19,137 bases of DNA from a virus (IMGVR_UViG_2690316028_000003:1-19137); one strand, 5' to 3'; numbered from the stretch's first letter, positions 872 through 19,049 are shown. Translations and numbers: made by a program. Notes: generated by a model from the letters alone, not told the origin.

Positions 872-1140
872 TGGGCGGTTCCTTCGTAACCGATGGCTTC
901 TGCAATTTCAGCAAGTGTCTCTGCACTTTCACCCACTGGCTCATTCATCCAGTCGAAGGAAACAAGCTTACCGCCTTCGATAACGCCGATGTTGAAATCA
1001 TCACTACCTTGTGTTTTCAGACCATGCTTGATTGCCTTATCGCGCTTATCGAAGTCAACGCCGTCTGTCGTGTATTCAACTCCATGGCCTTTCTCGTTGC
1101 ACCACCAGTACTGCTGAATAACGATGTATGATTTTCTCAT
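868..1140 (-). CDS. hypothetical protein (90 aa)
   Basis: ORF track; 4-nt overlaps with both neighbours; no recognised domain. Confidence 0.55.
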   Translation of the reverse strand: MRKSYIVIQQYWWCNEKGHGVEYTTDGVDFDKRDKAIKHGLKTQGSDDFNIGVIEGGKLVSFDWMNEPVGESAETLAEIAEAIGYEGTAQ

Positions 1141-1583
1141 GACTGCACTCCTTTGCGAATTTGGTAGGCATGGACGCGCATTATGTCGATTGCCTTCGAT
1201 GTGACAGGATGCTGATGGTTCATCATCGCAATGACTGTGTTAATCGCTGAATCCACACCCTGCGCCCGCACTTCAGCCAGGAAAGCGTCGGTGGCTGGGG
1301 TTTCTAACTTCTTGGTGGTTGTATCAAACTCAAACAACTTAACCACGTCATCAAACAGGACATAATCGCCATCAGGATCTTCAGTCATGTCAGCGCCACA
1401 ATCCTGACCGAACGAGTCGCAACCATCAATATCAAGCTCGTATCGCTTAAGGTTTGCGATATTTGATAAATTCAACGCCAGTACAGCAAGGTCATAAACC
1501 TCGTCAACGGTATACCCTGCACCATGCCCATACATTTCAATGCGCGATATGATTTCTTCTACTCGTTGTTTTGTGATTGTCAT
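1137..1583 (-). CDS. hypothetical acidic protein (148 aa)
   Basis: ORF track; start ATG overlaps stop of the HNH gene 1580..2284; no recognised domain. Confidence 0.6.
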   Translation of the reverse strand: MTITKQRVEEIISRIEMYGHGAGYTVDEVYDLAVLALNLSNIANLKRYELDIDGCDSFGQDCGADMTEDPDGDYVLFDDVVKLFEFDTTTKKLETPATDAFLAEVRAQGVDSAINTVIAMMNHQHPVTSKAIDIMRVHAYQIRKGVQS

Positions 1584-2284
1584 TTTTGATCACATCCTTT
1601 GCGAAGCTGGGCATCGGTATTGATGCGACTAAAATAGAATCCGAATACTTTCTTCCATGGCTTAACAACAGCGTCCCTGATTGAGTTTGGGTTAAATCCA
1701 GCCTCGATGGCCTGTTTGCTGTCAAAGAACACATACCCAAAACCTTCCTCGTTCTCAGCGCAGACTGGACCTTTATACGATCCGTGTTTTCTTCCCCCGG
1801 CCAGACCTGTTCTATATGCGTGCTGAGTGTTGCCCGCTACCGTCGTCCACTCCAGGTTTGAAACATCATTGTTTTGTTTATTCCCGTCTATATGGTTAAT
1901 TACGTGCTCATCAGAAGGCTTAGGGCCGAGAAAGTTTTCAGCAACTAATCGGTGGATGTTCACGCCTTTTAGTTTTCCTTCAAGCTCCAGCCTAACGAAT
2001 AAATACTGATTTCTGTTCTTGCCGCGCATGGTTGGGTTTAATTGCTTTAGTTCGCCAGAGGCCAATGAGAAAATGAGCCCCTTTGAGGTGATGAAATAGC
2101 GATACTTAAAACCAAAAATCTCTTTCACATCGCCAAATAAGTCAGCCAGCGCCGCGCACTTGGCCTCCGCTTCAGCAAATTTACGCACCAGATATTCAGC
2201 GTTTGTTTCGTTAACCTTTAAGTCTCGCGGGATGCATTTTCCTTTCAGAAATCCATCCATCTCAATTAGTGACATTTGTTTCAT
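1580..2284 (-). CDS. HNH homing endonuclease (NUMOD4-like N-terminus plus HNH_3 domain)
   Basis: Translation contains [24 protein letters not shown] (NUMOD4-like) and [11 protein letters not shown]...[19 protein letters not shown] (HNH_3 motif H..N..DN....NLE); embedded by ATGA overlaps between neighbours. Confidence 0.75.
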
Positions 2285-2445
2285 TTCTTCCCACTCCGCA
2301 ACATCGCATTCAGATATTTGTTTTGATTCACTGATGGAAAAGAATTTCTCTTAAGCAATTCCTCTCTCGATGGCATTGGCTTTACGCGTTGGCGAATAAT
2401 CATTTCTGCCGGAAGAATGCCGGGATTGTATGCAAGTCCTCTCAT
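2281..2445 (-). CDS. small hypothetical protein (54 aa)
   Basis: Manual translation ([54 protein letters not shown]); GAGGAA SD 6 nt upstream of ATG at 2445; stop overlaps ATG of HNH gene (ATGA); below ORF-track size cutoff. Confidence 0.3.
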
Positions 2446-2461
2446 GGTAAATTCCTCTTTG

Positions 2462-2776
2462 TTAATTTATTCGTATGCCTGCTCTTTCTTCATCGAGTTT
2501 TTTTAGCTTGTATCGCATAGCTCTTACTGAATAAATTGAGCGGCAGGTTGCAATTGCTATTTCTTCTGCGGAGAACTTACCGAAAAGTGATACTTCGGCT
2601 CTTGTCCATCGTCTTCCACGAAGTCGGCTAACAATGTCAGCTCCAATCCTTGTTGCTTTCGCCATTACTGCTTTTTCAGTCCTTTCCAGTTTTTCAGCGA
2701 TAACTTCAACTGGCATTGTCGCCGCTACTTCGCGCAAGAAATCGACTTCCCATTTCTCCCATGGAGTCTTTTTCAT
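2462..2776 (-). CDS. hypothetical protein with two tandem W-x3-EV-x-(F/L) helical repeats, possible DNA-binding
   Basis: ORF track; internal duplication visible ([14 protein letters not shown]...IAEKL... vs [22 protein letters not shown]...); no strong SD. Confidence 0.55.
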
Positions 2777-2787
2777 AGGCGATACCG

Positions 2788-3270
2788 TTATTTGATAAGA
2801 AGTGAAGGTTTCCCAACTTTGAGTTGAGCGCCGGGGATATTTATTCCTGCTTTTAGTTGGTGTTTGATTGCCAGTTTGTCGGCTTTAATTGTCGTTTCAA
2901 ACTCAACGTATTCAGGAGGAAGGGCGCTTGAGTCGATTATTTCTACAATTTCTGACGGTTTGCGGATTGTTACCTGGTGAATACCTGCTCGAATATTTTT
3001 CTTGCCAACCATTTCAAGCGATGACGCTATATATGATTTGATGCTGTCAATCTTATTTTGGATTACTGCGGCTCGCTCATTCAGTGACTTTGCCTCTTCC
3101 TTGAGGCGTTCAGCATAACCAGATTCATTTTTAATGACGGAAAGAAGTTGCTCTATTTTATCGGTAAATTCTCCTTCCATGCCTTCTATTGTGTCAGCAA
3201 TCATCTCTGGTTCTAAATCTGAATCCATCAATTTTGCGTATTCATTGGCAATTTCATACAGTTTGCTCAC
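2788..3270 (-). CDS. Siphovirus Gp157-family protein (RecT-associated, function unknown)
   Basis: ORF track frame 2788..3276; family assigned from recalled similarity and position immediately downstream of recT; likely start is GTG at 3270 preceded by GGAGG 6 nt upstream (track start at 3276 is TTG). Confidence 0.55.
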   Translation of the reverse strand: MSKLYEIANEYAKLMDSDLEPEMIADTIEGMEGEFTDKIEQLLSVIKNESGYAERLKEEAKSLNERAAVIQNKIDSIKSYIASSLEMVGKKNIRAGIHQVTIRKPSEIVEIIDSSALPPEYVEFETTIKADKLAIKHQLKAGINIPGAQLKVGKPSLLIK

Positions 3271-4168
3271 TGGCAACCTCCAGTTTCGCTTTGCATTCTA
3301 TGTAAATGGCTTGTACGTTCTGCTGCAATTTCATTCCAGACGTCAGGCGATATGCTTCTGCAAAATATCGCTTCAAATCATCCATGTTTTCTGCCTGAGC
3401 CATTTCATCGCAAAGAAGTTGTACTTTATCCATTATTTCCTGCTGGCGTTTCCGTTCATCTTCGCGGATATCTTCCTCTGATTTGTGCGGCATAACTGGT
3501 TCAGTCCACACACCTTCTTCTTCGTTTAGTACGTGAATAGCACTATCAAGACGTGATGCCTTAGGCCAATACTTGCTTGCACGCTTTACGACCGTCTTTC
3601 GCGCCATCTCATTCCAGTGATTTACCCATGGTCCTTTATCGCTGAATGCCGCCTTGCTTGTTTTCCTTACAGCCTCAATTTCAGCCAGACTCATCTCTTC
3701 CGTTAGATAATCACCTGCTGGCGTCTTAACTGTGCAGTAAACGCCAACGATATCACCACGATCACCGAAGGCGTTGTATTTATGGGTTGGTGCTTTATCA
3801 AGCCCGTTTGACTCATAGGTATCGTTAGCATGAACAAGTTTTGCCTGACCCCATGAGATAACACCAGACTCCATTGCAATATGGAGCAATCCCATATAGC
3901 TGATATCAAGGCAAACCATGCCGTCGCGCGGAACCAGATAAGCCAGTTTGCTGGCCGGGTTTAAGGTGATGCCGATCGCCGCAACGTTGATGATAGCGTT
4001 CTGTGCGCTGGTCGGATTTGCCAGTGCTGTTTTAGCCAGGTAATCATTTTTCTGGAAATACTGAATTGCAAACTGGCTTTCCTTAGCCCATGTGACTGAT
4101 TGGTCTGTAACCGCCCCAACAAAGAGCGGCTCTTGCTGTTTAACGAACTCAACAATGCTCATGCTCAT
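3254..4168 (-). CDS. recT: RecT-family single-strand annealing recombinase
   Basis: 304 aa; segment ...KGPWVNHWNEMARKTVVKRASKYWP matches the conserved RecT core (GPWV.HW.EMA.KT...R..KY.P) as I recall it from E. coli Rac RecT; sits in the bet position downstream of gam. Confidence 0.85.
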   Translation of the reverse strand: MSMSIVEFVKQQEPLFVGAVTDQSVTWAKESQFAIQYFQKNDYLAKTALANPTSAQNAIINVAAIGITLNPASKLAYLVPRDGMVCLDISYMGLLHIAMESGVISWGQAKLVHANDTYESNGLDKAPTHKYNAFGDRGDIVGVYCTVKTPAGDYLTEEMSLAEIEAVRKTSKAAFSDKGPWVNHWNEMARKTVVKRASKYWPKASRLDSAIHVLNEEEGVWTEPVMPHKSEEDIREDERKRQQEIMDKVQLLCDEMAQAENMDDLKRYFAEAYRLTSGMKLQQNVQAIYIECKAKLEVASEQTV

Positions 4169-4170
4169 CG

Positions 4171-4467
4171 TTACTGTCCCTCATCAATATCTGTTTGGTG
4201 GCGAGCAATTGTCTCTGCCATGTAGCGAATAAATTCAGCGGCCCTTTCCTGAAACTCGACGTCATCATCGAATGCTTTGGAAATGGCATTCTTGCTGGCC
4301 CCGCGACGTTGCAACTCGTCAACGCACAACGATTCCAGTTTGCTCTGTGGCAATCCTTTTTCTAGGTCATCAGCCAGTTCAGATTCACGCTCTTCTCTGG
4401 CTATTTGCTGATAATGGCGCGTCCAGTTCTGCGCCTCGATACGGTCTTGAACGAGATATGCAGCCAT
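4171..4467 (-). CDS. gam: host-nuclease (RecBCD) inhibitor Gam, short form
   Basis: From ATG 4467 (AGGAG SD 6 nt upstream): [41 protein letters not shown]...[34 protein letters not shown], near-identical to lambda GamS; ORF track offers an upstream ATG at 4596 (GamL-like extension) that overlaps the preceding gene by 50 nt. Confidence 0.8.
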
Positions 4468-4546
4468 AATAGGCTCCTGAAATTTGGTTGTGCGCTGCCC
4501 GTCTGCGATAGCCGGACGAGTAGGGGTAATGGGTGTTTGGTGTGGT

Positions 4547-4789
4547 TTACTTGCCGAGTGCCTTGTCGATGGCGGAACGAGCCATATCAAACTCATCTGT
4601 TTGACGGTCTGCTACTCTAACTACAGCCTGCAGAGCTTCCAGTAATTCAGGCACTGCAGTAATGAGAGTCTTGTTTTCCTTGCTCGTCATTTCAAGTGGA
4701 TATCCCTTTCCAAAGACTATGTGATGCTTGTTTCCCAAGCCCTCTTCATCCCAAAACCACGGACCGGGAGTTCCTTTAAATTCGCTCAT
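4547..4789 (-). CDS. small protein, Ead/Ea22-like C-terminal-domain family (paralog of 6341..6619)
   Basis: ORF track; motifs [28 protein letters not shown] shared with the 6341..6619 product; AGGAAG SD; family name is from recall. Confidence 0.55.
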
Positions 4790-4792
4790 AAC

Positions 4793-4912
4793 TCACTTCC
4801 TGTGCCACGGAAAACCAATTGCCGCCTTCATATCGTTGTAGGCTGACATCCACATTTCACTATCACCAATAAATCGGGCTATTACTGCTTTGTTCTGTGC
4901 AGCACGAAGCAT
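4793..4912 (-). CDS. possible Kil-like small protein (39 aa)
   Basis: Manual translation MLRAAQNKAVIARFIGDSEMWMSAYNDMKAAIGFPWHRK; sits between cIII and the next gene as kil does in lambda; FIGD motif resembles what I recall of lambda Kil; no clear SD. Confidence 0.25.
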   Translation of the reverse strand: MLRAAQNKAVIARFIGDSEMWMSAYNDMKAAIGFPWHRK

Positions 4913-4926
4913 CTGGTGATTGATGG

Positions 4927-5058
4927 CTATTTCATTGCGCGTAATAAGACCTCAACTCTTTTCCATCCGTCACGTAATTTACGGGTGATTCGTTCAAGTA
5001 AAGATTCATTTAGTTGGAAGGCACCCATGCGAGCGCCTCCCGCGATTGCGTAAATCAT
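4927..5058 (-). CDS. cIII: CIII-like FtsH inhibitor (43 aa)
   Basis: Manual translation MIYAIAGGARMGAFQLNESLLERITRKLRDGWKRVEVLLRAMK; core ESLLERITRKLRDGWKR matches lambda CIII; AAGGAA SD 6 nt upstream; below ORF-track size cutoff. Confidence 0.7.
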   Translation of the reverse strand: MIYAIAGGARMGAFQLNESLLERITRKLRDGWKRVEVLLRAMK

Positions 5059-5082
5059 GGGTGGTTCCTTATGTTGGTTTTA

Positions 5083-6051
5083 TTAGTAGGTTATTTTTGT
5101 TGCGAATACTTCGCCTTTTACGATGGCTGTTATGATATTTTTAGCAACATCTTCTGATGCGCCAACCTTGATAAGGTCAGCAAGTATTTTGTTATTTACT
5201 TCTTTCCGGTGAGCTTTATCCTTTGCTCTACGCTCTTCTTCTTCCTTGATTCTTTTTTCTTCTGCTATTCTGGCTTGCTCTTTTGCTTCAGCCTCGCGCC
5301 TGATTCGTTCAGCCTCCTCCTGTGCTTTTCGGCGTTCTGCTTCAATTGCCGCCTGCTTTTCTCTTTCAGCTCGTTCTGCTGCCTCTTTTGCTTCGCGCTG
5401 TGCTCGTTGCTCGGCTTCAATGCGTTCACGCTCTGCACGTTCCGCTGCGGCCTTAGCTTCTGCTTCTCGCCTTGCTGCTGCTTCAATTTCGGCTTTTGCC
5501 TTTGCTTCGGCTTCTGCTCTGGCTTTCTCTTCAGCTTCTCTTTTTAAGCGTTCTTCATGCTCTCGCTTTTCCTGCTCCGCTTTGAGTCTTGCCTCTTCTC
5601 TTTGGCGGTCAAATTCGCGATCCATCAAAAACGCTATTTCATGGTCAGACTCAATTTGCTTTGCGAGAGCTTCAGCTGCTGCCTTAGCTTCTTCTTCGGC
5701 TTTAATCCGCGCCTGTTCTTCCTCATAATCAGTAAGAGGCTGGCGCGCCTTGGCTTTCAGTTCATCAAGGCGATCGCGCACTGTCTTGCGGTTAGCATCA
5801 ATTAGCTTTGGAATTTCCTTCAGTTCAGCAACAAGGTCTTTGCCAAGACCATCGAGATATGTTTTCGTCTGCGCAACTTTATACGCCAGAGAAGCGATCT
5901 CCTTTCTGCCCTTTGCCGTTGTGATATCAGGCACAAAGGACATAACTTCACGTTCAACCTTTTGAAGGATTTCTTCAATCTGGTCGGCAGACTGAAATAC
6001 AGTCATTGCATTTGCTTTTTCAATAACAACTAAATCTGTTACTTCACTCAT
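5083..6051 (-). CDS. hypothetical protein with about 170-aa E/A/R/K-rich charged helical (SAH/coiled-coil-like) central segment
   Basis: ORF track 322 aa; GGAGGA SD upstream of ATG 6051; central region is REAEEKARAEAEAKAKAEIEAAARREAEAK...; globular N- and C-terminal ends. Confidence 0.65.
   Translation of the reverse strand: MSEVTDLVVIEKANAMTVFQSADQIEEILQKVEREVMSFVPDITTAKGRKEIASLAYKVAQTKTYLDGLGKDLVAELKEIPKLIDANRKTVRDRLDELKAKARQPLTDYEEEQARIKAEEEAKAAAEALAKQIESDHEIAFLMDREFDRQREEARLKAEQEKREHEERLKREAEEKARAEAEAKAKAEIEAAARREAEAKAAAERAERERIEAEQRAQREAKEAAERAEREKQAAIEAERRKAQEEAERIRREAEAKEQARIAEEKRIKEEEERRAKDKAHRKEVNNKILADLIKVGASEDVAKNIITAIVKGEVFATKITY
5230..5700. repeat. low-complexity imperfect short repeats (gcttc/ctgc-rich) encoding the E/A/R/K segment
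   Basis: Visible short-period repetition on the plus strand; produces spurious Cys/Phe/Ser-rich plus-strand ORFs (5209..5547, 5246..5728). Confidence 0.5.
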
Positions 6052-6063
6052 ATATCCTCCATC

Positions 6064-6091
6064 AAAAAATTGCCCTCACACTGGAGGGCAA
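6064..6091 (-). terminator. intrinsic terminator inside the pL operon (tL-like)
   Basis: 8-bp stem ttgccctc/gagggcaa (6070..6077 with 6084..6091), 6-nt loop; on the minus strand it is followed by UUUUUU (plus a-run 6064..6069). Confidence 0.5.
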
Positions 6092-6182
6092 AGAAGATTT
6101 CCAATAATCAGAACAAGTCGGCTCCTGTTTAGTTACGAGCGACATTGCTCACATAGCAGACTCGCAAATCTGCTATAGGTGC

Positions 6183-6344
6183 TTATTCGCATCGCATGAC
6201 AACATCAAATTTTTCGAGATTACTTTGTCGCAACAATCCCTCTTCTACGCGGTCAGCTTTTCTATAATTATCAAATTCGAAATGTTTAATTACTTCTTTC
6301 GTTTCTCGCTCTATAACTTCAACAATGTATTTCTTATTCATCAT
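6183..6344 (-). CDS. small hypothetical protein (53 aa)
   Basis: MMNKKYIVEVIERETKEVIKHFEFDNYRKADRVEEGLLRQSNLEKFDVVMRCE; ATG at 6344 overlaps TGA stop of upstream gene (ATGA coupling); track's longer version starts inside the upstream gene. Confidence 0.45.
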   Translation of the reverse strand: MMNKKYIVEVIERETKEVIKHFEFDNYRKADRVEEGLLRQSNLEKFDVVMRCE

Positions 6345-6619
6345 TCTTCCCCCAGGGCCTTGCTGATGGCTGCCTTGGCTCGTTTGTATTCGGTTAACTC
6401 TCTGCACCCTTCGTCATGCTCGTAAAGGAAGACAAGCTCTTGCAGTGCTTCAAGCAAATCAGGAGCTGCTGCTATCAGTAGCGCATCCTCCCTTTCATTT
6501 CTTGTTGCTGCTTCAATGTATGTGTCACCAATCGTCACACCATGGAACGTAGTCATCATCTCGTTGACGTTTCTAACCGTGTACTTCCATTTACCAGGCG
6601 TACCCTTAAACTCTTTCAT
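6341..6619 (-). CDS. small protein, Ead/Ea22-like C-terminal-domain family (paralog of 4547..4789)
   Basis: From ATG 6619 (GAGG 5 nt upstream): MKEFKGTPGKWKYTVRN...LLIAAAPDLLEALQELV...AKAAISKALGEE; track start at 6625 is GTG. Confidence 0.55.
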   Translation of the reverse strand: MKEFKGTPGKWKYTVRNVNEMMTTFHGVTIGDTYIEAATRNEREDALLIAAAPDLLEALQELVFLYEHDEGCRELTEYKRAKAAISKALGEE

Positions 6620-6649
6620 ATCCACCTCTGTTGTTTATGCCAAAGCAAA

Positions 6650-6817
6650 TTTAACCATCAACAAACTCTTCTGGTAATTTATCAACCAGTTGATGACTTA
6701 TTATCAGCCATTTGCCATCCTTCGTTTCGTATGCATATTTCTGGTCTTTTATCATCATGTGTTCGGCTACTGCCCTAACTGCCTGATCGGTGACATCTTC
6801 TCTCTTTCCTACCCACA
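6650..6817 (-). CDS. small hypothetical ORF (55 aa), in frame with and directly after a 24-codon ORF (6818..6892)
   Basis: Manual translation MWVGKREDVTDQAVRAVAEHMMIKDQKYAYETKDGKWLIISHQLVDKLPEEFVDG; no SD of its own; upstream mini-ORF has strong GAGGA SD and ends with TGA immediately before this ATG. Confidence 0.25.
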
Positions 6818-6949
6818 TTCATTTTTCAGTGTTTAATGTTCCTTGAAAAATACGACCGCTTAATGGGCTTGCGCCCATAGTTTTTACTCTCATGTATCAG
6901 TCCTCAAATAAGTGGTTTGCTGCGAAAATAAATCCGCTTAAGTTACCTG

Positions 6950-7087
6950 TTATTTATCCCACCAAGTTCCGTATCTATCTATCCAGTTACACCAATCATC
7001 GACACTCCATTTTGTTGTGTCGCATTTTGGCAACTGGCATGAATATCTACCTTCTTTGTAAAGTCGGCGTTTGACTTTCTTGAGCAT
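6950..7087 (-). CDS. small Cys/Trp-rich hypothetical protein (45 aa)
   Basis: Manual translation MLKKVKRRLYKEGRYSCQLPKCDTTKWSVDDWCNWIDRYGTWWDK; ATG 8 nt after N stop with GAGG about 6 nt upstream. Confidence 0.3.
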   Translation of the reverse strand: MLKKVKRRLYKEGRYSCQLPKCDTTKWSVDDWCNWIDRYGTWWDK

Positions 7088-7095
7088 GGCTCACC

Positions 7096-7428
7096 TCAAT
7101 CGTAATAAGCTGGAATTGATTTTCCGCGTTGTTTCTGGCGGCCTACACAAGTCACACCCATTTCACTGCGTGGCTTGCTGTACCATGTGCGCTGATTCTT
7201 GCGCTCAATACGTTGCAGGTTGCTTTCAATCTGTTCGTGGTATTCAGCCAGCACCGTAAGGTCTATCGGATTCAGTGCGCTTTCTACTCGTGATTTCGGT
7301 TTGCGATTCAGCGAGAGAATAGGGCGGTTAACTGGTTTTGCGCTTACCCCAACCAACAGGGGATTTGCTGCTTTCCATTGAGCCTGTTTCTCTGCGCGAC
7401 GTTCGCGGCGGCGTGCTTGTGCATCCAT
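7096..7428 (-). CDS. N: antitermination protein N
   Basis: From ATG 7428 (AGGAG SD): MDAQARRRERRAEKQAQWKAANPLLVGVSAKPVNRPILSLNRKPKSRVESALNPIDLTVLAEYHEQIESNLQRIERKNQRTWYSKP..., near-identical to lambda N including the arginine-rich motif; track's upstream ATG at 7479 lacks a good SD. Confidence 0.9.
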   Translation of the reverse strand: MDAQARRRERRAEKQAQWKAANPLLVGVSAKPVNRPILSLNRKPKSRVESALNPIDLTVLAEYHEQIESNLQRIERKNQRTWYSKPRSEMGVTCVGRQKQRGKSIPAYYD

Positions 7429-7600
7429 CTTGATTCTCCTGTCAGTTAGCTTTGGTGGTGTGGTAGGTGGGAGACCCATTTCGACCTGCTTCGGCCGACT
7501 TCAATTCGGCAATAGTTCCGCAGGCCTCGCCGCTTTACGTGCGACATATTCCCATCCATGAACCCTTCACCACACCCCAAAGCCTTCTGCTTTGAATGCT

Positions 7601-7631
7601 GCCCTTCTTCAGGGCTTAATTTTTAAGAGCA
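7601..7631 (-). promoter_or_regulatory. nutL (boxA plus boxB) N-utilisation site
   Basis: Minus-strand reading gives TGCTCTTAA (boxA-like, 7631..7623) followed by GCCCTGAAGAAGGGC (boxB hairpin, 7615..7601), matching lambda nutL boxB exactly. Confidence 0.85.
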
Positions 7632-7670
7632 TCACCTTCATGGTGGTCAGTGCGTCCTGCTGATGGCTAG

Positions 7671-7699
7671 ATAATCACAAATTGTGTTCGTGCTGTCAA
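7671..7699 (-). promoter_or_regulatory. pL-like early-left promoter
   Basis: Minus strand TTGACA (7699..7694), 17-nt spacer, GATTAT (7676..7671); overlaps operator sites; points toward nutL and N. Confidence 0.6.
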
Positions 7700-7734
7700 C
7701 ACGAAATGTGATTGTTTTTATCACAACACGTGTT
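7674..7734. promoter_or_regulatory. OL: three repressor operator sites
   Basis: 15-bp dyads ATCACA-AAT-TGTGTT (7674..7688), AACACG-AAA-TGTGAT (7698..7712), ATCACA-ACA-CGTGTT (7720..7734); centre spacing 24 and 22 bp. Confidence 0.6.
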
Positions 7735-7772
7735 TTCATTGATTTTTAAGGTAATTTAATTTTCTTTGGGCA

Positions 7773-7806
7773 ACAAAAAACCCGCCGAAGCGGGTTTGAT
7801 GTTTTT
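7773..7806. terminator. bidirectional intrinsic terminator downstream of cI
   Basis: aaaaaa-CCCGC-cgaa-GCGGG-tttgatgttttt: GC hairpin with an A-run on one side and T-rich run on the other; 15 nt past the cI stop. Confidence 0.55.
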
Positions 7807-7820
7807 AAGTGGCGGGTATA

Positions 7821-8462
7821 TCAGGAGAATTTCATCATCATCTGCACTGCTACGCCGATTATCTTGCAGTTGCCGTCGATTGGGATCAACGGATAGGCAG
7901 GGTTAAGCCCTTTCAGGTATTTGTTACCGCCATCAATGATTAGCTTCTTGAACGTGGCTTCATTAGCATCTGTCAGCTTCGCAACTACCAGGCTTCCATT
8001 AACGGCTTCCTTTCCAGTGTCGAACAGAACCAGCATACCCTCAGGAACGCTAAGGCCGGTAGGAGCTGTCATTGAGTCGCCCTGAACCCTGAGCCAGAAG
8101 GCGTCACCGACAACGTGACAATCTGATTCATACCACTCATCCACTGCCTGAGGGTTGTACGGCTCTACGGCCTCACTCCATGCACCTGCGCTAACCCAGC
8201 TAATCAACGGAAACTTTTCCCCTGGCTTGTATTGTCCCTGATAGTTGTCGCCAAAAAGCAGTTCTGCCGGAGCGACGCCCAAAGCTTTAGCTATTACCTC
8301 TGCGTCATCAACACTAACGCTTCTGGTTCCTGATTCATAGTTGCCGATCCGAGATTGTGAAGCCCAGCCGCAAAGCTCCGCCAGCGCCTTCTGTGAAAGC
8401 CCTTTATCTTCCCGTAATCGCTTGATACGCGCGGCGATAGTTTCTGTTCTGTTCATGCGCAT
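7821..8462 (-). CDS. cI: CI-type prophage repressor (N-terminal HTH, C-terminal LexA-like S24 autopeptidase)
   Basis: 213 aa; HTH segment LSQKALAELCGWASQSRIGNYESG; probable Ala-Gly cleavage site in SAGAW; catalytic QGDSM serine motif and downstream Lys; ATG sits within about 10 nt of a TATAAA -10-like element, suggesting a near-leaderless pRM transcript. Confidence 0.85.
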   Translation of the reverse strand: MRMNRTETIAARIKRLREDKGLSQKALAELCGWASQSRIGNYESGTRSVSVDDAEVIAKALGVAPAELLFGDNYQGQYKPGEKFPLISWVSAGAWSEAVEPYNPQAVDEWYESDCHVVGDAFWLRVQGDSMTAPTGLSVPEGMLVLFDTGKEAVNGSLVVAKLTDANEATFKKLIIDGGNKYLKGLNPAYPLIPIDGNCKIIGVAVQMMMKFS

Positions 8463-8467
8463 TTTAT

Positions 8468-8529
8468 ATCACATTCCGTGGTTTAAGGCTTTACACGATT
8501 TGTGTTGACTATCAATCACAATATGTGTT
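8468..8529. promoter_or_regulatory. OR: three repressor operator sites
   Basis: ATCACA-TTC-CGTGGT (8468..8482), TACACG-ATT-TGTGTT (8492..8506), ATCACA-ATA-TGTGTT (8515..8529); same half-site consensus as OL. Confidence 0.6.
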
Positions 8530-8533
8530 TAAT
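8505..8533 (+). promoter_or_regulatory. pR-like early-right promoter
   Basis: TTGACT (8505..8510), 17-nt spacer, TTTAAT (8528..8533); overlaps the two cro-proximal operators. Confidence 0.55.
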
Positions 8534-8566
8534 AAAGACTGAGTGAACTAGCTCTTAAGGAAACCT

Positions 8567-8782
8567 ATGAACAACATTGCCAACGAACGGAAAAAGCTTG
8601 GCATCACTCAATCTGCGTTAGCAGGCGCGTGTGGCTGGAACCAGTCCCGCTTAGCTAACTACGAGTCAGGTATCCGGACTCCAGATTTAGAGTCGTGCCG
8701 TCGCCTGGTAAAGGCGCTGAATAAATTGGGGAGCAAGACAACGCTAGATGGCTTGTTCCCGCCGGAACACAAAGCCGCTTAA
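8567..8782 (+). CDS. cro: Cro-like HTH regulator
   Basis: 71 aa; HTH LGITQSALAGACGWNQSRLANYESG; first gene after pR, divergent from cI; AAGGAA SD. Confidence 0.75.
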   Translation: MNNIANERKKLGITQSALAGACGWNQSRLANYESGIRTPDLESCRRLVKALNKLGSKTTLDGLFPPEHKAA

Positions 8783-8790
8783 GACATTCC

Positions 8791-8822
8791 CGCTCTTACA
8801 CATCCCCGCCCTGAAAAAGGGC
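8791..8822 (+). promoter_or_regulatory. nutR (boxA plus boxB)
   Basis: CGCTCTTACACA (boxA, 8791..8802) and GCCCTGAAAAAGGGC (boxB, 8808..8822); the stretch from here to cII appears essentially lambda-identical. Confidence 0.85.
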
Positions 8823-8901
8823 ATCAAATTAAACCACACCTATGGTGTATGCATTTATTTGCATACATTCAATCAATTGTTATCTAAGGAAATACTTACA
8901 T

Positions 8902-9180
8902 ATGGTTCGTGCAAACAAACGCAACGAGGCTCTACGAATCGAGAGTGCGTTGCTTAACAAAATCGCAATGCTTGGAACTGAGAAGACAGCGGAAGCTGTG
9001 GGAGTTGATAAGTCGCAGATCAGCAGGTGGAAGAGGGATTGGATTCCAAAGTTCTCAATGCTGCTTGCTGTTCTTGAATGGGGTGTTGAAGACGAGGAGT
9101 TGGCGGAACTGGCTAAGAAAGTAGCCAGAATGCTGACAAAAGAAAAAGCCCCGAAGAACGGCGAATTCTTCGAGGCCTGA
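8902..9180 (+). CDS. cII: transcriptional activator CII
   Basis: From ATG 8902: MVRANKRNEALRIESALLNKIAMLGTEKTAEAVGVDKSQISRWKRDWIPKFSMLLAVLEWGV..., near-identical to lambda CII over the first roughly 60 residues; track start at 8842 is an upstream in-frame Met. Confidence 0.9.
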   Translation: MVRANKRNEALRIESALLNKIAMLGTEKTAEAVGVDKSQISRWKRDWIPKFSMLLAVLEWGVEDEELAELAKKVARMLTKEKAPKNGEFFEA

Positions 9181-9214
9181 TGTAGAAAGACTGGATCAAT
9201 CCACAGGAGTAATT

Positions 9215-9376
9215 ATGACAAAACGTCGTAAGAAATACCAGGAAAAAGAAGAGATTCGACACCCTGATTCACCTGAGGGATTAGTGGTAGCCGCAGCAAA
9301 TAACAGGGCGTTCGCAGAGCGCCTTGTTGGTGTTTACAGACTAGCCAAAGCAGGAGTGAAACATGGGCGTCGTTAA
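9215..9376 (+). CDS. small basic hypothetical protein (53 aa)
   Basis: Manual translation [53 protein letters not shown]; AGGAG SD 5 nt upstream; overlaps O start by 14 nt. Confidence 0.35.
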   Translation: MTKRRKKYQEKEEIRHPDSPEGLVVAAANNRAFAERLVGVYRLAKAGVKHGRR

Positions 9377-10184
9377 GTTAGCTGATTACAGGCCTCAACT
9401 GGAGGTCGTGGAGCATCGCGTGGCAGATACCGAAGATGGTTTCATGCGCGTTGCTAACGAGATTACCGACAGTCTGCTGATGGCTGATTTAACCGTCCGG
9501 CAGATGAAGGTGATGCTCGCTATCATGCGCAAGACATACGGATTCAATAAGCCGATGGATCGACTCACAAACACGCAGATAGCAGCCATGACAGGTATTC
9601 ATCACACTCATGTTTGCGCTGCCAAGCGCCAGCTTATTGAGCGTAAATTCCTCATTGCTGATGGCGTGAAAATCGGAGTGAACAAGGTGGTTTCTCAGTG
9701 GATTAGCCAGGACAGCTTAACATTAGCTAAAACAGCTAATAAAACATTAGCCAAGTCGGCTAATGGGTATAAGCCAAGTCAGCTAAACACAAAAGACAAT
9801 ATACAAAAGACAATAAATACAAATACCCCCTTACCCCCTAACGGGGGTGGCGATGGGCAGGTTAAACCTGAACGTCGCAAGGCAGAACGAATCGACTACG
9901 AATCCTTCCTGAACGCCTACAACACCGAAGTCGGTGACAGACTGCCACACGCTGTTTCGGTCAACGAGAAACGCAAACGCCGCCTGAAGAAAATCATCCC
10001 GCAACTGAAAACGCCAAACGTGGACGGTTTCAGAGCGTATGTCAGGGCGTTTGTGCATCAGGCCAAGCCGTTTTACTTCGGAGACAACGACACGGGCTGG
10101 ACGGCCGATTTTGATTACCTGTTGAGGGAAGATTCGTTAACGGGAGTACGGGAAGGGAAGTTTGCAGACAGGGGGATTTCATGA
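9363..10184 (+). CDS. O: replication initiator, lambda O-like N-terminal domain
   Basis: N-terminal region ...[37 protein letters not shown]... resembles lambda O (DLTKRQFKVLLAILRKTYGWNKPMDRITDSQL); AGGAG SD; iterons inside the gene. Confidence 0.8.
9703..9825. repeat. origin-like iterons (four copies) plus AT-rich tract inside the O gene
   Basis: TTAGCCAGGACAGCTTAA (9703..9720), TTAGCTAAAACAGCTAA (9723..9739), TTAGCCAAGTCGGCTAA (9747..9763), AAGCCAAGTCAGCTAA (9771..9786), each with internal dyad TTAGC...GCTAA, followed by an A/T-rich run acacaaaagacaatatacaaaagacaataaatacaaata. Confidence 0.55.
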
Positions 10185-11557
10185 GACAGGATATCGAAGC
10201 GAGCGTTATCGGTGGCCTGCTGATTGGTGGATTAACGCCAACCGCCAGCGACGTTCTGGCAACGCTGGAGCCGGAAGCGTTTTCAATTCCGCTCTACCGG
10301 AAAGCCTTCGAGGTTATCCGCAAGCAGGCGAGAAACAGAAACCTAATCGATGCGCTGATGGTTGCCGAGGCGTGCGGAGAGGAGCATTTCACGTCAATCC
10401 TGATGACCAGCAAAAACTGCCCGAGTGCCGCAAACCTGAAGGGATATGCCGGAATGGTCGCGGATAACTATCACCGCCGTCTGGTGCTGGAAATCATGGA
10501 TGAAATGCGTGAACCAATTCAGAGCGGAACCATCGACGCATCGAGTCAGGCGATGGATGAACTTGTAAAGCGTCTCTCAGCCATCAGAAAGCCCCGTAAC
10601 GAGGTTAAACCGATACGGTTAGGGGAAATCATCACTGACTACACTGACACGCTTGACAGGCGTCTGAGGAACGGAGAAGAGTCAGATACCCTGAAGACCG
10701 GAATCGAAGAACTTGACGCCATCACCGGAGGGATGAACGCGGAAGACCTTGTGATAATCGCTGCTCGTCCTGGTATGGGGAAAACCGAACTGGCGCTGAA
10801 GATTGCCGAAGGCGTTGCAAGCCGCGTTATTCCTGGTTCTGACGTCCGGCGCGGGGTATTGATTTTCTCAATGGAAATGAGCGCATTGCAGATTGCAGAG
10901 CGAAGCATTGCCAACGCCGGGAGGATGTCGGTTAGCGTACTGCGAAATCCTGCATCGATGGATGACGAGGGCTGGGCACGTGTTGCTAACGGCATGAGTC
11001 AGCTTGCAGATTTGGATGTATGGGTAGTCGATGCCTCGCGGTTATCGGTCGAAGAAATACGCTCAATCGCAGAACGGCACAAACAGGAAAATCCAAACCT
11101 GTCACTCATCATGGCGGATTATCTTGGCCTGATTGAGAAGCCGAAAGCAGACCGCAACGACCTTGCAATTGCTCACATCTCCGGAAGCCTGAAGGCGATG
11201 GCGAAAGACCTGAAAACGCCTGTTATCTCCCTGAGTCAGCTTTCGCGCGATGTTGAGAAGCGACCAAACAAACGCCCGACAAACGCAGATTTGCGTGATT
11301 CAGGAAGCATTGAACAGGATGCAGACTCAATCATCATGCTCTATCGGGAAGCGGTATATGACGAGAACAGTAGCGCCGCGCCATTTGCTGAAATCATTGT
11401 GACGAAAAACCGTTTTGGCTCGCTTGGTACGGTTTACCAGCGGTTCTGCAACGGACACTTTGTTGCATGTGACCAGGATGAAGCCAGACAGATTTGCACA
11501 ACATCAAATGCACCCGCTGCACGTGGCAGACGATATGCACAAGGGGCTGACGTATGA
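10181..11557 (+). CDS. DnaB-family replicative DNA helicase (P22 gp12-like)
   Basis: 458 aa; Walker [10 protein letters not shown]; DnaB-like N-terminal domain; ATG overlaps O stop (ATGA). Confidence 0.85.
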
Positions 11558-11658
11558 CCATCTACATCACTGAGCTAATAGCAGGGTTATCGTTACTAAT
11601 GGTTCTTACTGTATATATTATTAAGTATATTCTTTATGCGAATAAAAAAACTAATTGA
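11554..11658 (+). CDS. possible small hydrophobic membrane peptide (34 aa)
   Basis: Manual translation [34 protein letters not shown]; ATG overlaps helicase TGA (ATGA); one predicted TM helix with a basic C-terminus; overlaps the start of the next HNH gene in another frame. Confidence 0.2.
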
Positions 11659-12247
11659 TCACGATGAGCTTCTGTCAACATTATCATATGACTCAGAAAC
11701 AGGAATATTTAAATGGCTAAAAACAAATTCAGTAGTAAGAGTAAAAGGTAGTATTGCTGGAGGTGTTAGTGGTGGTTATATATGCATTAGCATAAATAAT
11801 GTTTTGTATTATGCGCATAGACTTGCTTGGTTCTATGTATACAAAAAATGGCCTCCTAAGTTTATTGATCATGTAAATGGGAACAGACTTGACAATAGGA
11901 TTTCAAATCTAAGACTGGCAACAGAAGAGCAGAATGCAAGAAACATTGTAGGGAATAGATTAAACACATCCGGTGCAATTGGAGTGTCTTGGTATAAGCC
12001 AACTGGCAGGTGGAAGTCTTATGTTGGTTATAAAAATAAGACAATATCGTTAGGGTATTTCGATAGCAAAGAAGATGCAGCATTCATAGCAGCACTAGCA
12101 AGAAAGAAACTATATGGAACTTATGCGAGTAAAGCACTTAATTGCGAGCATGAGCTTTTATCTCAATTTAATAATGATGAGGATAAACTTGCGGAATATC
12201 TTAAGGAAAAATCTAAAAGGACTCGAAATCGTGTTAAAAACAGATAA
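11636..12247 (+). CDS. HNH homing endonuclease (HNH_3 plus AP2-like DNA-binding domain)
   Basis: YYAHRLAWFYVYKKWPPKFIDHVNGNRLDNRISNLRLATEEQN (HNH_3) then GVSWYKPTGRWKSYVGYKNKTISLGYFDSKEDAAFIAA (AP2-like); visibly AT-rich compared with the flanking helicase and ninB; no clear SD. Confidence 0.75.
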   Translation: MRIKKLIDHDELLSTLSYDSETGIFKWLKTNSVVRVKGSIAGGVSGGYICISINNVLYYAHRLAWFYVYKKWPPKFIDHVNGNRLDNRISNLRLATEEQNARNIVGNRLNTSGAIGVSWYKPTGRWKSYVGYKNKTISLGYFDSKEDAAFIAALARKKLYGTYASKALNCEHELLSQFNNDEDKLAEYLKEKSKRTRNRVKNR

Positions 12248-12279
12248 AGGCCTGCTGGTAATCGCAGGCCTTTTTATTT
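12248..12279 (+). terminator. intrinsic terminator (tR2-like) between the replication module and nin region
   Basis: Stem aggcctgc/gcaggcct (8 bp), 8-nt loop, then TTTTTATTT. Confidence 0.65.
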
Positions 12280-12295
12280 GGGGGAGAGGGAAGTC

Positions 12296-12736
12296 ATGAA
12301 AAAACTAACCTTTGAAATTCGATCCCCAGCACATCAGCAAAACGCTATTCACGCGGTGCAGCAAATTCTTCCAGACCCAACCAAGCCAATCGTAGTGATC
12401 ATTCATGAGCGCAACCGCAGCTTAGACCAAAACAGGAAGCTATGGGCCTGCTTAGGTGACGTCTCTCGTCAGGTTGAATGGCATGGTCGCTGGCTGGATG
12501 CAGAAAGCTGGAAGTGTGTGTTTACCGCAGCATTAAAGCAGCAGGATGTTGTTCCTAACCTTGCCGGGAATGGCTTTGTGGTAATAGGCCAGTCAACCAG
12601 CAGGATGCGTGTAAGCGAATTTGCGGAGCTATTAGAGCTTATACAGGCATTCGGTACAGAGCGTGGCGTTAAGTGGTCAGACGAAGCGAGACTGGCTCTG
12701 GAGTGGAAAGCGAGATGGGGAGATCGGGCTGCATGA
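12296..12736 (+). CDS. ninB: NinB (Orf-family recombination mediator)
   Basis: From ATG 12296: MKKLTFEIRSPAHQQNAIHAVQQILPDPTKPIVV...ARLALEWKARWGDRAA, near-identical to lambda NinB; track start 12278 is an upstream TTG. Confidence 0.9.
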   Translation: MKKLTFEIRSPAHQQNAIHAVQQILPDPTKPIVVIIHERNRSLDQNRKLWACLGDVSRQVEWHGRWLDAESWKCVFTAALKQQDVVPNLAGNGFVVIGQSTSRMRVSEFAELLELIQAFGTERGVKWSDEARLALEWKARWGDRAA

Positions 12737-13095
12737 CTATCAAATCAAATACGGCAGCGTCAGATAGGTATCGGCTTATTGAGGATTATCTGTATTTAGA
12801 CGGAGATACAGTCAGATACAAAAAGGACTCGCTAAAACACCCCAACCACAGCCACCGGGCCGGAGATGAAATTAAAACATCGATAAATGGATCTGGGTAT
12901 AGACAGGTGTGTTTTGCAGGCATTCAGATGTTTGTTCACGTAGTTGTTTTTGCGCTGCACAACAAAAGAATGCCATTGAAAAATATTGACCATATTAACG
13001 GAAACAGGCTGGACAATTCCCCAAAAAATCTTAGGGAGGCAAGCCGGATAGCAAACAGCCGAAATCAGAAAACTAAGTTCAATAGCCGTTCTTGA
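12733..13095 (+). CDS. HNH endonuclease, HNH_3 domain only; an in-frame TGA separates it from an AP2-like domain that continues to 13260
   Basis: From ATG 12733 (overlaps ninB stop): MTIKSNTAASDRYRLIEDYLYLDGDT...VHVVVFALHNKRMPLKNIDHINGNRLDNSPKNLREASRIANSRNQ; after TGA at 13093..13095 the same frame stays open for 54 codons ([54 protein letters not shown]). Confidence 0.6.
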   Translation: MTIKSNTAASDRYRLIEDYLYLDGDTVRYKKDSLKHPNHSHRAGDEIKTSINGSGYRQVCFAGIQMFVHVVVFALHNKRMPLKNIDHINGNRLDNSPKNLREASRIANSRNQKTKFNSRS

Positions 13096-13256
13096 ATAAA
13101 AAATGTTTTATGGAACAAGCAAAAAAATAAATGGGCCGTTCAAGTGCGCACAGATTTTGGCCGGTTGCATTTTGGGTTCTATGAAGATCTTGAGCTTGCT
13201 GGTTTGGTTGCCAGTGAGGCTATCAACAAATATCACGGACAATATGCGAGGGTTGA

Positions 13257-13787
13257 ATGATTAAGCATAAATCAGAAACACCAAAAGAAGTTAGAGACTG
13301 CTGGCAAACGCCGCTCTGGCTTTTTGATGCACTGGATATTGAGTTTGGATTCTGGCTGGACTCAGCTGCGAGCGACAAAAATGCTCTGTGCGCTCACTGG
13401 CTAACTGAGGCCGACGACGCGCTCAATTCTGAGTGGGTAAGCCACGGTGCAATCTGGAATAACCCACCGTACAGCAATATCAGGCCGTGGGTGGAAAAAG
13501 CCGCTGAGCAGTGCATACAACAGCGACAGACGGTAGTTATGCTTGTGCCAGAGGATATGTCAGTCGGATGGTTCAGCAAGGCTCTGGAGAGTGTCGACGA
13601 AGTTCGCATTATCACTGATGGACGGATTAATTTTATCGAACCATCGACAGGGCTGGAGAAGAAGGGAAACAGCAAAGGCTCAATGCTGCTGATTTGGCGA
13701 CCGTTCATCAGTCCTCGACGAATGTTTACTACCGTATCCAAAGCGGCATTGATGGCGATCGGGCAGGGCGTCAGGAGGGCGGCATGA
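13257..13787 (+). CDS. phage Dam-like DNA N6-adenine methyltransferase
   Basis: 176 aa; [18 protein letters not shown]...[10 protein letters not shown] (NPPY catalytic motif IV); ATG overlaps the upstream stop. Confidence 0.8.
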
Positions 13788-14361: not shown

Positions 14362-14530
14362 CCCATCCCAATCCCTTCAATACCAGAAAGAAAGCGTCGA
14401 GCGAGCTTTAACATGCGCTAACTGCGGTCAGAAGCTGCATGTGCTGGAAGTTCACGTGTGCTCCGATTGCTGCGCAGAACTGATGAGCGATCCGAATAGC
14501 TCAATGTACGAGGAAGAAGACGATGAGTGA
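14354..14530 (+). CDS. ninF: NinF
   Basis: Manual translation [58 protein letters not shown], near-identical to lambda NinF; below ORF-track size cutoff. Confidence 0.85.
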
Positions 14531-15314
14531 GTTAATGAATGGCAATGCCATCAAAATGACAAGCATTGAAATCGCTGAGTTGGTAGAAAGCCGCCATAGC
14601 AATGTAAAAGTATCCATAGATAGATTGGTGAAACGTGGCGTTATCAAGCCTCCTGCATTGCAGCACACTAACATAATCAATGATTTAGGTGTTATTACCG
14701 GGAAGCGTGATTTCTACGTCTTCGAAGGCGAACAAGGAAAGCGAGACAGCATTATTGTCGTCGCCCAGTTGTCGCCAGAGTTCACCGCTCGCCTTGTTGA
14801 CCGCGGCGCGGAAAACGTCGAGCGCCTGGAGCTGATTACTATGCCTTGGTTCCGGGCTGTGCGAGGAAACCATGAGCAGATGATGATTGATGGGCTATCG
14901 GAGTATGGGAACGTCAATCACTGGTTGGCAAATGGTGGCGGCTGGTTCTTCAATCTCGACTATGACAAAGAAGTGCTGGCTAAGGCTCTGGTTCACAAAG
15001 CAGCTGAGCTGCCACTCGTCATCGAGCTGGTTACCGCTGAGCGTAAAATCGTTATCTGCCACGCTGACTACCCGCATAACGAATATGCGTTCGATAAGCC
15101 CATCCCGAAAGATATGGTCATCTGGAATCGAGAGAGGGTTAGCGACGCACAGGACGGCATTGTATCGACGATAGCCGGTGCTGATCTGTTTATCTTCGGC
15201 CACACCCCAGCGCGCCAGCCCCTGAAGTATGCCAACCAGATGTACATCGACACCGGCGCCGTGTTCTGCGGAAACCTCACGCTGGTAAAGGTGCAAGGCG
15301 GTGAACATGCGTAA
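14523..15314 (+). CDS. chimeric protein: Rha/antirepressor-like N-terminal segment fused to lambda Ser/Thr phosphatase (NinI) C-terminal region lacking motif I
   Basis: Residues from about 93 ([34 protein letters not shown]...FIFGHTP...[21 protein letters not shown]) closely match lambda phosphatase residues about 52..221; N-terminal 90 aa ([25 protein letters not shown]...) carry no GDxHG motif and the GD of GDxxDRG is replaced by AR. Confidence 0.7.
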
Positions 15315-18578: not shown

Positions 18579-19049
18579 ATGACCCAGCATATTGGCGTAA
18601 AACTGATTAACGCCTTTCCGATGACGAGACAGGCATATAACGATTTTCGTGGCTGGCAGCTTCCTGCCGGAGAAAACGGCGAGGATGAAGGCTATCTGGT
18701 TGAATATCTTGATGGCGGAAAACCTAACACCGATCGCTTTGATGGCTACGTTAGCTGGAGTCCAAAAGAAGTATTCGAAAAGGCTTATCGTCCGGTATCA
18801 GGGCTAAGTTTCGGCCTTGCCATTGAAGCGCTCAAGTTGGGGAATAAAGTTGCCCGTGCTGGCTGGAATGGTAAGGGGATGTATCTGTTCATTATCCAGC
18901 AGAATGCTTGGGGGTTTGAGTGTGACCTGGACGGAGTTAATGGCCTTGTGACGCTGCCATGCATTTGCATGAAGACAGCGGACGATAAATTAGTACCGTG
19001 GCTGGCTAGTCAGACTGATGTTCTAGCAGAAGACTGGCAAATCATTTAA
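18579..19049 (+). CDS. hypothetical late accessory protein with DUF2829-like (Tad2-like) C-terminal domain
   Basis: 156 aa; C-terminal GLSFGLAIEALKLGNKVARAGWNGKGMYLFII...KTADDKLVPWLASQTDVLAEDWQII resembles DUF2829 as I recall it; N-terminal about 70 aa unassigned; follows a terminator with weak SD. Confidence 0.55.
   Translation: MTQHIGVKLINAFPMTRQAYNDFRGWQLPAGENGEDEGYLVEYLDGGKPNTDRFDGYVSWSPKEVFEKAYRPVSGLSFGLAIEALKLGNKVARAGWNGKGMYLFIIQQNAWGFECDLDGVNGLVTLPCICMKTADDKLVPWLASQTDVLAEDWQII

Follow-up and report, generated by a model that had tools for sequence, protein, structure and literature searches.

What are the three HNH nuclease genes found in the early region of a lambdoid Escherichia coli phage or prophage, and how did they come to lie there? 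The window, IMGVR_UViG_2690316028_000003:1-19137 (the whole analysed stretch of 19,137 nucleotides (nt), 19.1 kb), covers this early region, and the original prediction saw in it three free-standing homing-endonuclease genes wedged into gene junctions of both early operons. The best explanation, to which we give a probability of roughly 70%, is a mosaic lambdoid early region with three selfish homing-endonuclease cassettes at different stages of their life cycle. It is supported by the domain identities, by the boundaries of the cassettes, by alleles that lack the insert, have decayed or retain a footprint, and by the ATGA coupling of the genes to the pL and pR operons. The genes are designated here HNH1, HNH2 and HNH3:

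1580..2284, minus strand: HNH1, a 234-amino-acid chimera in which an EaE/Ea22-like N-terminus, an I-HmuI-like HNH_3 nuclease and an EaE-like 'QLRKG' tail are joined in frame
11636..12247, plus strand: HNH2, an intact 203-amino-acid endonuclease with HNH_3 and AP2-like parts (phrog_99, 244 bits)
12733..13260, plus strand: HNH3, a full 175-codon gene with HNH_3 and AP2-like parts and one in-frame TGA, joined by ATGA overlaps to ninB (12733-12736) and dam (13257-13260)

Open reading frames (ORFs) exist at all three predicted positions, 1580..2284 (minus strand), 11636..12247 and 12733..13095 (both plus strand), and each encodes an HNH_3 domain (Pfam PF13392) scoring well above the gathering score of 24.8 bits: 51.6 bits for HNH1 (E 7e-14, residues 110-153), 57.9 bits for HNH2 (E 8e-16) and 43.5 bits for HNH3 (E 2.5e-11). 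PHROG HNH-endonuclease families and the PADLOC 'HEase' (homing endonuclease) model are matched by all three proteins alike, and among the PADLOC defence-system models the homing endonuclease models gave the only matches. The catalytic residues of the beta-beta-alpha-metal type, namely an H, a G-N pair, an N, an N-L pair and a distal N, are invariant across the three, none of which matched the classical HNH model (PF01844-type) in the Pfam scan.

Two other assignments were considered and rejected. Membership in the terminase-associated HNH proteins of the HK97 gp74 type is contradicted by gene position, the early operons pL and pR that hold all three genes being remote from the packaging genes, and by the domain itself, which is HNH_3 rather than the small zinc-binding HNH found next to terminase/cos. 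An intron-borne endonuclease is disfavoured since no group I or group II intron family reached the Rfam threshold and no tRNA genes were found within the window; the Pfam scans of the proteins likewise gave no intein domains. The three cassettes probably encode site-specific endonucleases of the I-HmuI type (HNH_3, beta-beta-alpha-metal) that are selfish and reside outside introns and inteins, and there is good reason to think that HNH1, HNH2 and HNH3 each stand at a different stage in the life cycle of homing endonucleases.

Insert-free alleles proved to be abundant among related lambdoid phages and prophages for all three cassettes, as had been anticipated; the genes are far from uniformly conserved at these positions, and searches with hidden Markov models recovered an HNH domain in each. 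At the HNH2 locus, the following features delimit the insertion:

11586..12247, plus strand: HNH2 insertion as defined against the empty site, length about 662 bp, GC content 0.33, with a 3-nt junction ambiguity (AGG)
11554..11658, plus strand: small hydrophobic ORF of 34 amino acids (MTIYITELI...), overlapping the P stop and the HNH2 start
12246..12273, plus strand: tR2-like intrinsic terminator hairpin, with a 10-pair stem including 6 GC pairs and a T-run

The empty site of E. coli GPEC1446 (locus L006, 8620-8700) reads GCTAATAACAGG^CCTGCTGGTAATCGCAGGCC; in this genome ATGACCATCTACATCACTGAGCTAATAACAGG is followed by CCTGCTGGTAATCGCAGGCC, which runs directly to the tR2 hairpin and then to ninB, and the insert-free P-tR2-ninB junction, in lambda or GPEC1446, reads GCTAATAACAGG^CCTGCTGG. 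An identical hairpin stands directly 3' of the conserved box in the empty site, and in the window the cassette terminates at the 5' foot of the tR2-like hairpin. The left cassette boundary is formed by the conserved first ~30 nt of the 11554-11658 ORF, the match beginning at 11554 both in the IMG/VR locus L024 and in phage PA28. HNH2 is inserted inside this small hydrophobic ORF, which starts at the P stop (a hypothetical protein in the SH2026Stx1 annotation, gp56 in that of HK97), and the cassette provides it with a new C-terminus that overlaps the HNH2 start. In empty-site genomes (L006 8620-8700; L005 1555-1653) the same ORF crosses the tR2 hairpin and terminates in an ATGA overlap with ninB; its C-terminus depends on the module in the slot, and it resembles a conserved linker for recombination or a coupling ORF.

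The original prediction had described HNH2 as AT-rich and placed just before a tR2-like terminator, and both statements held: the GC content is 0.343 for HNH2 versus 0.526 for P and 0.506 for ninB, and the insertion as a whole has 0.33 versus about 0.51-0.53 for the flanking genes; HNH2 is compositionally foreign. The 612-bp gene has 98% nucleotide identity to the annotated HNH endonuclease gene of Shiga toxin (Stx) phage SH2026Stx1 (gp29), and the Stx phages PA28 (gp34), 1717 and Stx2a_WGPS4 also carry it in the P/ren-ninB slot; upstream of the cassette lies a DnaB-type P in the window and SH2026Stx1 versus Ren in PA28. The Stx phages have further genes between the HNH endonuclease and ninB, whereas in the window tR2 and ninB come directly after HNH2; E. 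coli ETEC1720 agrees in this, its P-HNH-ninB arrangement being identical to that of the window. The L024 locus matches the window solely at 11554-12288, with 99.7% identity. At least 80% of window positions 11450-12400 is present in 77 of the 5426 complete E. coli genomes, and some match to this segment was found in 2081.

In the order of their parts, HNH_3 followed by an AP2-like segment, HNH2 and the repaired form of HNH3 resemble HNH-AP2 endonucleases; Magnani and colleagues in 2004 and Wessler in 2005 reportedly proposed that the AP2 domain of plants originated from bacterial, phage and ciliate enzymes of this kind. Among PDB entries, plant WRI1 gave a weak match through its AP2 domain. 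The difference from that group lies in the scores: the AP2 match of HNH2 (29.8 bits, E 7.7e-7) is below the gathering score of 33.3, and the AP2-like part of HNH3 is not called by Pfam.

HNH3 was predicted to be coupled to ninB by an ATGA overlap, and its ATG does overlap the ninB stop. The ORF at 12733..13095 is real and sits exactly in the ninB/dam ATGA junction, as comparison with the IMG/VR locus L031 demonstrates; however, it is only the front part of a gene that reaches to 13260. The relevant features are:

13093..13095, plus strand: private nonsense codon, GGA (Gly121) to TGA, by a private G-to-T change
13257..13787, plus strand: dam methyltransferase gene with an alternative 13-codon N-terminus (Pfam Dam, 221 bits)

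Past the TGA at 13093-13095, the HNH3 frame stays open up to the TGA of 13258-13260, in overlap with the start codon of dam. Base 13093 is G in the prophage alleles L006 and L007 and in 14 of 14 IMG/VR loci, and T in the window only; a second private change, Cys116Phe, is located at 13079. The gene is intact in 12 of the 13 full-length IMG/VR loci, and an intact 528-bp version is annotated in E. coli prophages of GPEC1446 (WP_052167194.1, L006) and strain E89, L006 and L007 being the intact alleles. The IMG/VR scan returned the Gly allele only, with no nonsense allele, and in the GTDB species-representative genomes neither of the two was found. The match to phrog_99 extends over residues 13-173 in the repaired protein (143 bits) and over residues 13-118 in the truncated ORF (85 bits), and BLASTP aligns repaired HNH3 with HNH2 through the AP2-like region; no Pfam AP2 was detected in repaired HNH3, and the homology of this half is shown by the PHROG coverage and the BLASTP alignment. 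The truncated protein retains the HNH motif and, because the TGA at Gly121 removes the AP2-like DNA-binding half, is most likely inactive.

The slot between ninB and dam is represented by a series of alleles. In the HK97-type empty allele, ninB is joined to dam at the sequence ATGACTATCAAATCAAATACGCCAGCACACGACAAGGACTGC, and dam starts with MTIKSNTPAHDK; between 12758 and 13296 the homology of the window to HK97 is interrupted. Intact HNH3 alleles open with the same 26 nt as HK97 dam, a stretch in which the window has one private change (12754), and HNH3 probably borrowed its start, the opening ~9 codons, from a dam allele. Locus L031 combines the alternative dam start with a clean ninB/dam ATGA junction and no endonuclease. 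In the IMG/VR loci L030 (~5850-5885) and L032 (~2675-2710), which have this alternative dam start too, the last 30 nt of HNH3 (CACGGACAATATGCGAGGGTTGAATGA) stand between the end of ninB and the dam ATG, a remnant that is evidently the deletion footprint of the endonuclease gene, and in L008 and L025 HNH3 is frameshifted or split. HNH3 is carried by 32 of the 5426 E. coli genomes, 1865 of which have some match to the region. The cassette is near-invariant in protein sequence, yet it is found behind ninB alleles that are only 43% identical in protein to that of the window, or behind genes other than ninB.

The association of an HNH gene with a phage DNA methyltransferase gene whose frame is kept recalls the ShiLan type of hidden HNH insertion, known from DNA methylase genes of actinophages (Arsenault et al. 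2025, PMC11855218). The ShiLan insertion lies within the methylase ORF and out of frame, while HNH3 occupies the extreme 5' end, has only the first ~9 codons in common with dam and leaves a complete dam ORF, with a substituted N-terminus, behind it. One could speculate, although we regard this as doubtful, that the ninB/dam junction samples a complete life cycle (susceptible empty alleles with the HK97-type dam 5' end, then intact, nonsense, frameshifted and footprint alleles), and that the alternative dam N-terminus is a cassette-borne 'immunity patch' which rewrites the target and keeps dam functional; empty alleles with the patch would then be ex-carriers that resist re-invasion.

HNH1 lies on the opposite strand. 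The description of free-standing genes at gene junctions is correct in that no intron or intein was found for any of the three, but it does not apply to HNH1, which is an in-frame chimera inside a gene of the EaE/Ea22 family:

2144..2284, minus strand: EaE-derived part of HNH1 (codons 1-47), with the conserved linker 'EAKCAALA' at its end
1137..1583, minus strand: downstream 148-amino-acid chimeric gene, with a phrog_3126 N-terminal module and an Ea22-like C-terminus

ATGA overlaps couple HNH1 to both of its neighbours. Residues 53-222 correspond to phrog_59/959 (HNH), and residues 1-47 to phrog_614/583, PHROGs to which no function is assigned and which are typical for proteins of the EaE/Ea22 type. 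The latter segment has 100% amino acid identity to the N-terminus of CDS0026 of phage Louie, an EaE-like protein free of nuclease, and at the nucleotide level window positions 2145-2446 correspond to 2078-2379 of Louie (L001) with 97% identity. EaE genes without HNH, as present in Louie, Gally and MSB1_9I, represent the insert-free state. The alignment with I-HmuI (PDB 1U3E), the nicking HNH homing endonuclease encoded by an intron of Bacillus phage SPO1, starts at residue 4 of that enzyme and residue 54 of HNH1 (E 4e-8) and covers the beta domain at the N-terminus as well as the HNH motif, so that the nuclease module begins just past the EAKCAALA linker. HNH1 differs from I-HmuI in lying outside a group I intron, in having Asn-His in place of Asp-His, and in being fused to the N-terminus of a host gene. 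A catalytic lesion as the meaning of Asn-His was rejected, since the N-H pair is invariant in the homologues and the gene is under purifying selection; N130-H131...N135...N152/H155 are conserved in all 19 homologues, down to about 32% identity.

The NUMOD4-like N-terminus ascribed to HNH1 was not confirmed: the match is below threshold (14.4 bits, cutoff 23.4) and falls at residues 54-99, and residues 1-47 are EaE-like. Distant homologues found by database search possess NUMOD4, HNH_3 and NUMOD1, and unfused proteins of the HNH1 type, about 190 amino acids long, also exist (P0064, P0066). The C-terminal tail is EaE-like, the comparable sequence in Gally EaE being AQLRKGGNQ. An older nuclease, consisting of a NUMOD4-like domain, HNH_3 and a C-terminal helix-turn-helix-like segment, probably took the place of the variable middle of an EaE/Ea22-family gene in frame and borrowed its start codon.

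An 'EaE-like protein in-frame fusion with HNH endonuclease' has been described as gene 31 of the Salmonella phage epsilon34 (Villafane et al. 2008, PMC2629481), and the EaE::HNH fusion is annotated both there and in g341c (gene 26). HNH1 and epsilon34 gene 31 have in common the position in the early-left operon, the junction KCAALA/DLFGDVKEI and the EaE-like C-terminal tail, with 87% amino acid and 80% nucleotide identity over the HNH part. They differ in the N-terminal EaE module, which in the window is of the E. coli type (that of Louie CDS0026), and in the further Ea22-like chimera (1137-1583) that follows HNH1 in the window. The ratio of non-synonymous to synonymous substitution rates (dN/dS) between the two is 0.13 at a dS of 0.50; the protein identity, the common junction and this ratio indicate that the chimera is old and maintained. 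The junction KCAALA/DLFG is constant among HNH1 homologues with varying N-termini in many enterobacterial prophages, and it is stable across prophages of E. coli, Salmonella and Atlantibacter. The age of the chimera, as well as the numbers of HNH genes annotated in other phages (four in Louie and five in Dewey, several per lambdoid genome being common), speak against the idea that three HNH genes in under 20 kb signal intense homing. Among the matches listed, high-identity HNH1 was found in a handful of complete E. coli genomes, and 1854 genomes match part of the region.

In relatives, the HNH1 gene is annotated by PGAP as two pieces, a shorter HNH ORF and a 'partial hypothetical'. Since Met is absent between residues 9 and 86 and Met86 itself is preceded by the I-HmuI-like N-domain, translation of HNH1 as a fused protein appears more plausible than this split. 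In the downstream gene at 1137-1583, residues 1-100 match phrog_3126 and residues 85-147 the C-terminal part of phrog_614/492, and over its last 55 amino acids an ead/Ea22-like protein from E. coli MSB1_9I has 98% identity; this gene is itself chimeric and shows that sub-gene modules are shuffled in the ea region at the ETPATDAFLAEVRAQG linker. EaE/Ea22-like proteins of 150-160 amino acids in which the HNH Pfam domain is absent bear the name 'hNH endonuclease' in NCBI and UniRef (for example, P0099, P0105 and products in several E. coli genomes). The misnaming likely arose from the 47-amino-acid N-terminus shared with EaE::HNH chimeras and spread as an annotation error.

How could such cassettes spread? 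The free-standing endonucleases of T4-like phages, such as SegF, SegG and MobE, perform intronless homing by cleavage and co-conversion of flanks, as proven experimentally in T4. The HNH genes of the window resemble them in their location, in the gaps separating conserved genes or at gene ends, and in having insert-free alleles in relatives; they differ in that the hosts are temperate phages, so that spread between prophages is also possible. By analogy with these enzymes and with I-HmuI, the intact HNH1 and HNH2 may be capable of cleavage and homing. They would nick or cut an insert-free allele near the insertion point during lytic growth, co-infection or prophage induction, and recombinational repair, relying on the phage RecT, Gam-like and NinB/Orf functions or on host RecA, would copy the cassette along with short flanking stretches. 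A rewritten 5' end of dam and a disrupted tR2-proximal sequence could protect the carrier genome from its own enzyme.

Several points weigh against this reading. In the nin and ea regions nearly every gene is mosaic, segments being swapped at conserved linkers (HK97 gp60 and the freely varying EaE middles are examples), so that presence and absence of a gene would be expected without any nuclease activity. Purifying selection on HNH1 fits a domesticated function equally well as active homing. The AP2 part remains below the gathering score in HNH2 and without a Pfam call in repaired HNH3, and the HNH3 stop at 13093 could be a sequencing error.

The rival that survives best, although we consider it unlikely, is that the cassettes are passive mosaic modules ('morons') moved by homologous or microhomology recombination at linkers (the MTIYITELI box with tR2, the ATGA junctions, EAKCAALA and QLRKG), the nuclease playing no part in their spread. 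The cassette boundaries do coincide with linkers used by unrelated genes, such as HK97 gp60 and lambda-type ren in the HNH2 slot, as well as by the variable EaE middles, and an occupancy of roughly 2-4% of the genomes with flanks is below the expectation for a strongly driving element. However, the characterised members of these families are homing endonucleases (I-HmuI, 1U3E; PADLOC HEase), the near-identity of the HNH3 protein across very different backgrounds suggests recent horizontal spread, and the decayed and footprint alleles fit the classical cycle of gain, decay and loss.

Less likely still is that HNH1, and possibly HNH2, have been domesticated and are kept for the benefit of the phage, by excluding or degrading co-infecting relatives, by processing host or phage DNA or in a role linked to EaE/Ea22, rather than for homing. 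The strong purifying selection on HNH1 and the stability of its junction behind many N-terminal modules, from E. coli to Salmonella and Atlantibacter prophages, agree with such a role, but the distribution of HNH1 is patchy, the sole defence-type model matched is 'homing endonuclease', and HNH3 is decaying in the window and in relatives. Finally, low-level production of full-length HNH3 by UGA read-through (context UGA-A), throttling a potentially toxic nuclease, would account for a single stop being the sole lesion in a frame fully open to the dam ATGA junction, yet it is highly improbable, given that the stop is private and not a conserved recoding signal and that C116F, 14 nt upstream, is consistent with relaxed constraint.

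The surroundings of the three cassettes confirm that both early operons are involved, as originally predicted: N and cI lie on the minus strand, and O, P and the nin genes on the plus strand. The two regulatory genes of the pL side are:

7096-7479, minus strand: N, N36-type
7821-8462, minus strand: cI, LexA-like

The pL side additionally encodes RecT, a Mu Gam-like protein and ea-region genes on the minus strand; the pR side, on the plus strand, carries cro/cII, O, a DnaB-type P, NinB, Dam, NinX, NinF, a NinI-like phosphatase, NinG, Q and lysis genes. The phage is a mosaic lambdoid phage of E. coli, P22/HK97/mEp213-like, of which the best phage record (mEp213) covers 40% of the window and the best complete E. 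coli genome 42%. Among phage records and complete E. coli genomes, with 42% as the maximum coverage of the window, no prophage with all three HNH genes was found; HNH2 and HNH3 occur together in three IMG/VR loci, in which the sequence compared stops short of the HNH1 region. A search of the window by tblastn with all three proteins gave no fourth HNH copy or remnant.

Relatives offer further early-region slots for HNH/NUMOD4 genes: directly after ninB in place of dam, in the gap between the Gam-like gene and RecT, beside N, and after roi. HNH/NUMOD4 genes in such other slots are located at 3756-4358 of L013 (ETEC1720), 3478-3945 of L001 (Louie), 3912-4445 of L006 (GPEC1446) and from 3861 of L005 (HK97). 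Three other genes of the window may be mentioned. Downstream of the lysis genes, a 156-amino-acid ORF (18579-19049, plus strand) contains a Tad2-like (Thoeris anti-defence 2-like) domain at residues 77-156 (Pfam PF11195, 93.8 bits) and has no match in PADLOC. A 263-amino-acid chimera in the nin region (14523-15314, plus strand) joins an N-terminal part of ~95 amino acids resembling Ant/Rha-type anti-repressors to a C-terminal part of ~170 amino acids similar to the NinI serine/threonine phosphatase (Metallophos). The gene at 5083-6051 (minus strand) encodes a 322-amino-acid protein that is TolA-like by annotation in relatives; its AT skew is extreme (-0.77 at 5201-5600), and Tandem Repeats Finder detected no tandem repeats in this gene.

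All three nuclease genes are already deposited and annotated (in Stx phages, as RefSeq proteins of E. coli prophages, and as gene 31 of epsilon34), and the chimera has been published; they are of a known kind and ordinary for these phages, and the result matters little beyond correct annotation. HNH3 should be annotated as a nonsense-disrupted 175-codon gene extending to 13260, not as a 120-amino-acid endonuclease, and HNH1 as an EaE::HNH chimera. The allele series at the ninB/dam slot could be used for testing intronless homing in temperate phages by lambda genetics. If the tentative life-cycle interpretation of this slot is true, it would provide a lambda-genetics system for intronless homing between prophages and, together with the EaE::HNH chimera, would mean that HNH genes of temperate phages routinely seize the start codons of resident genes.

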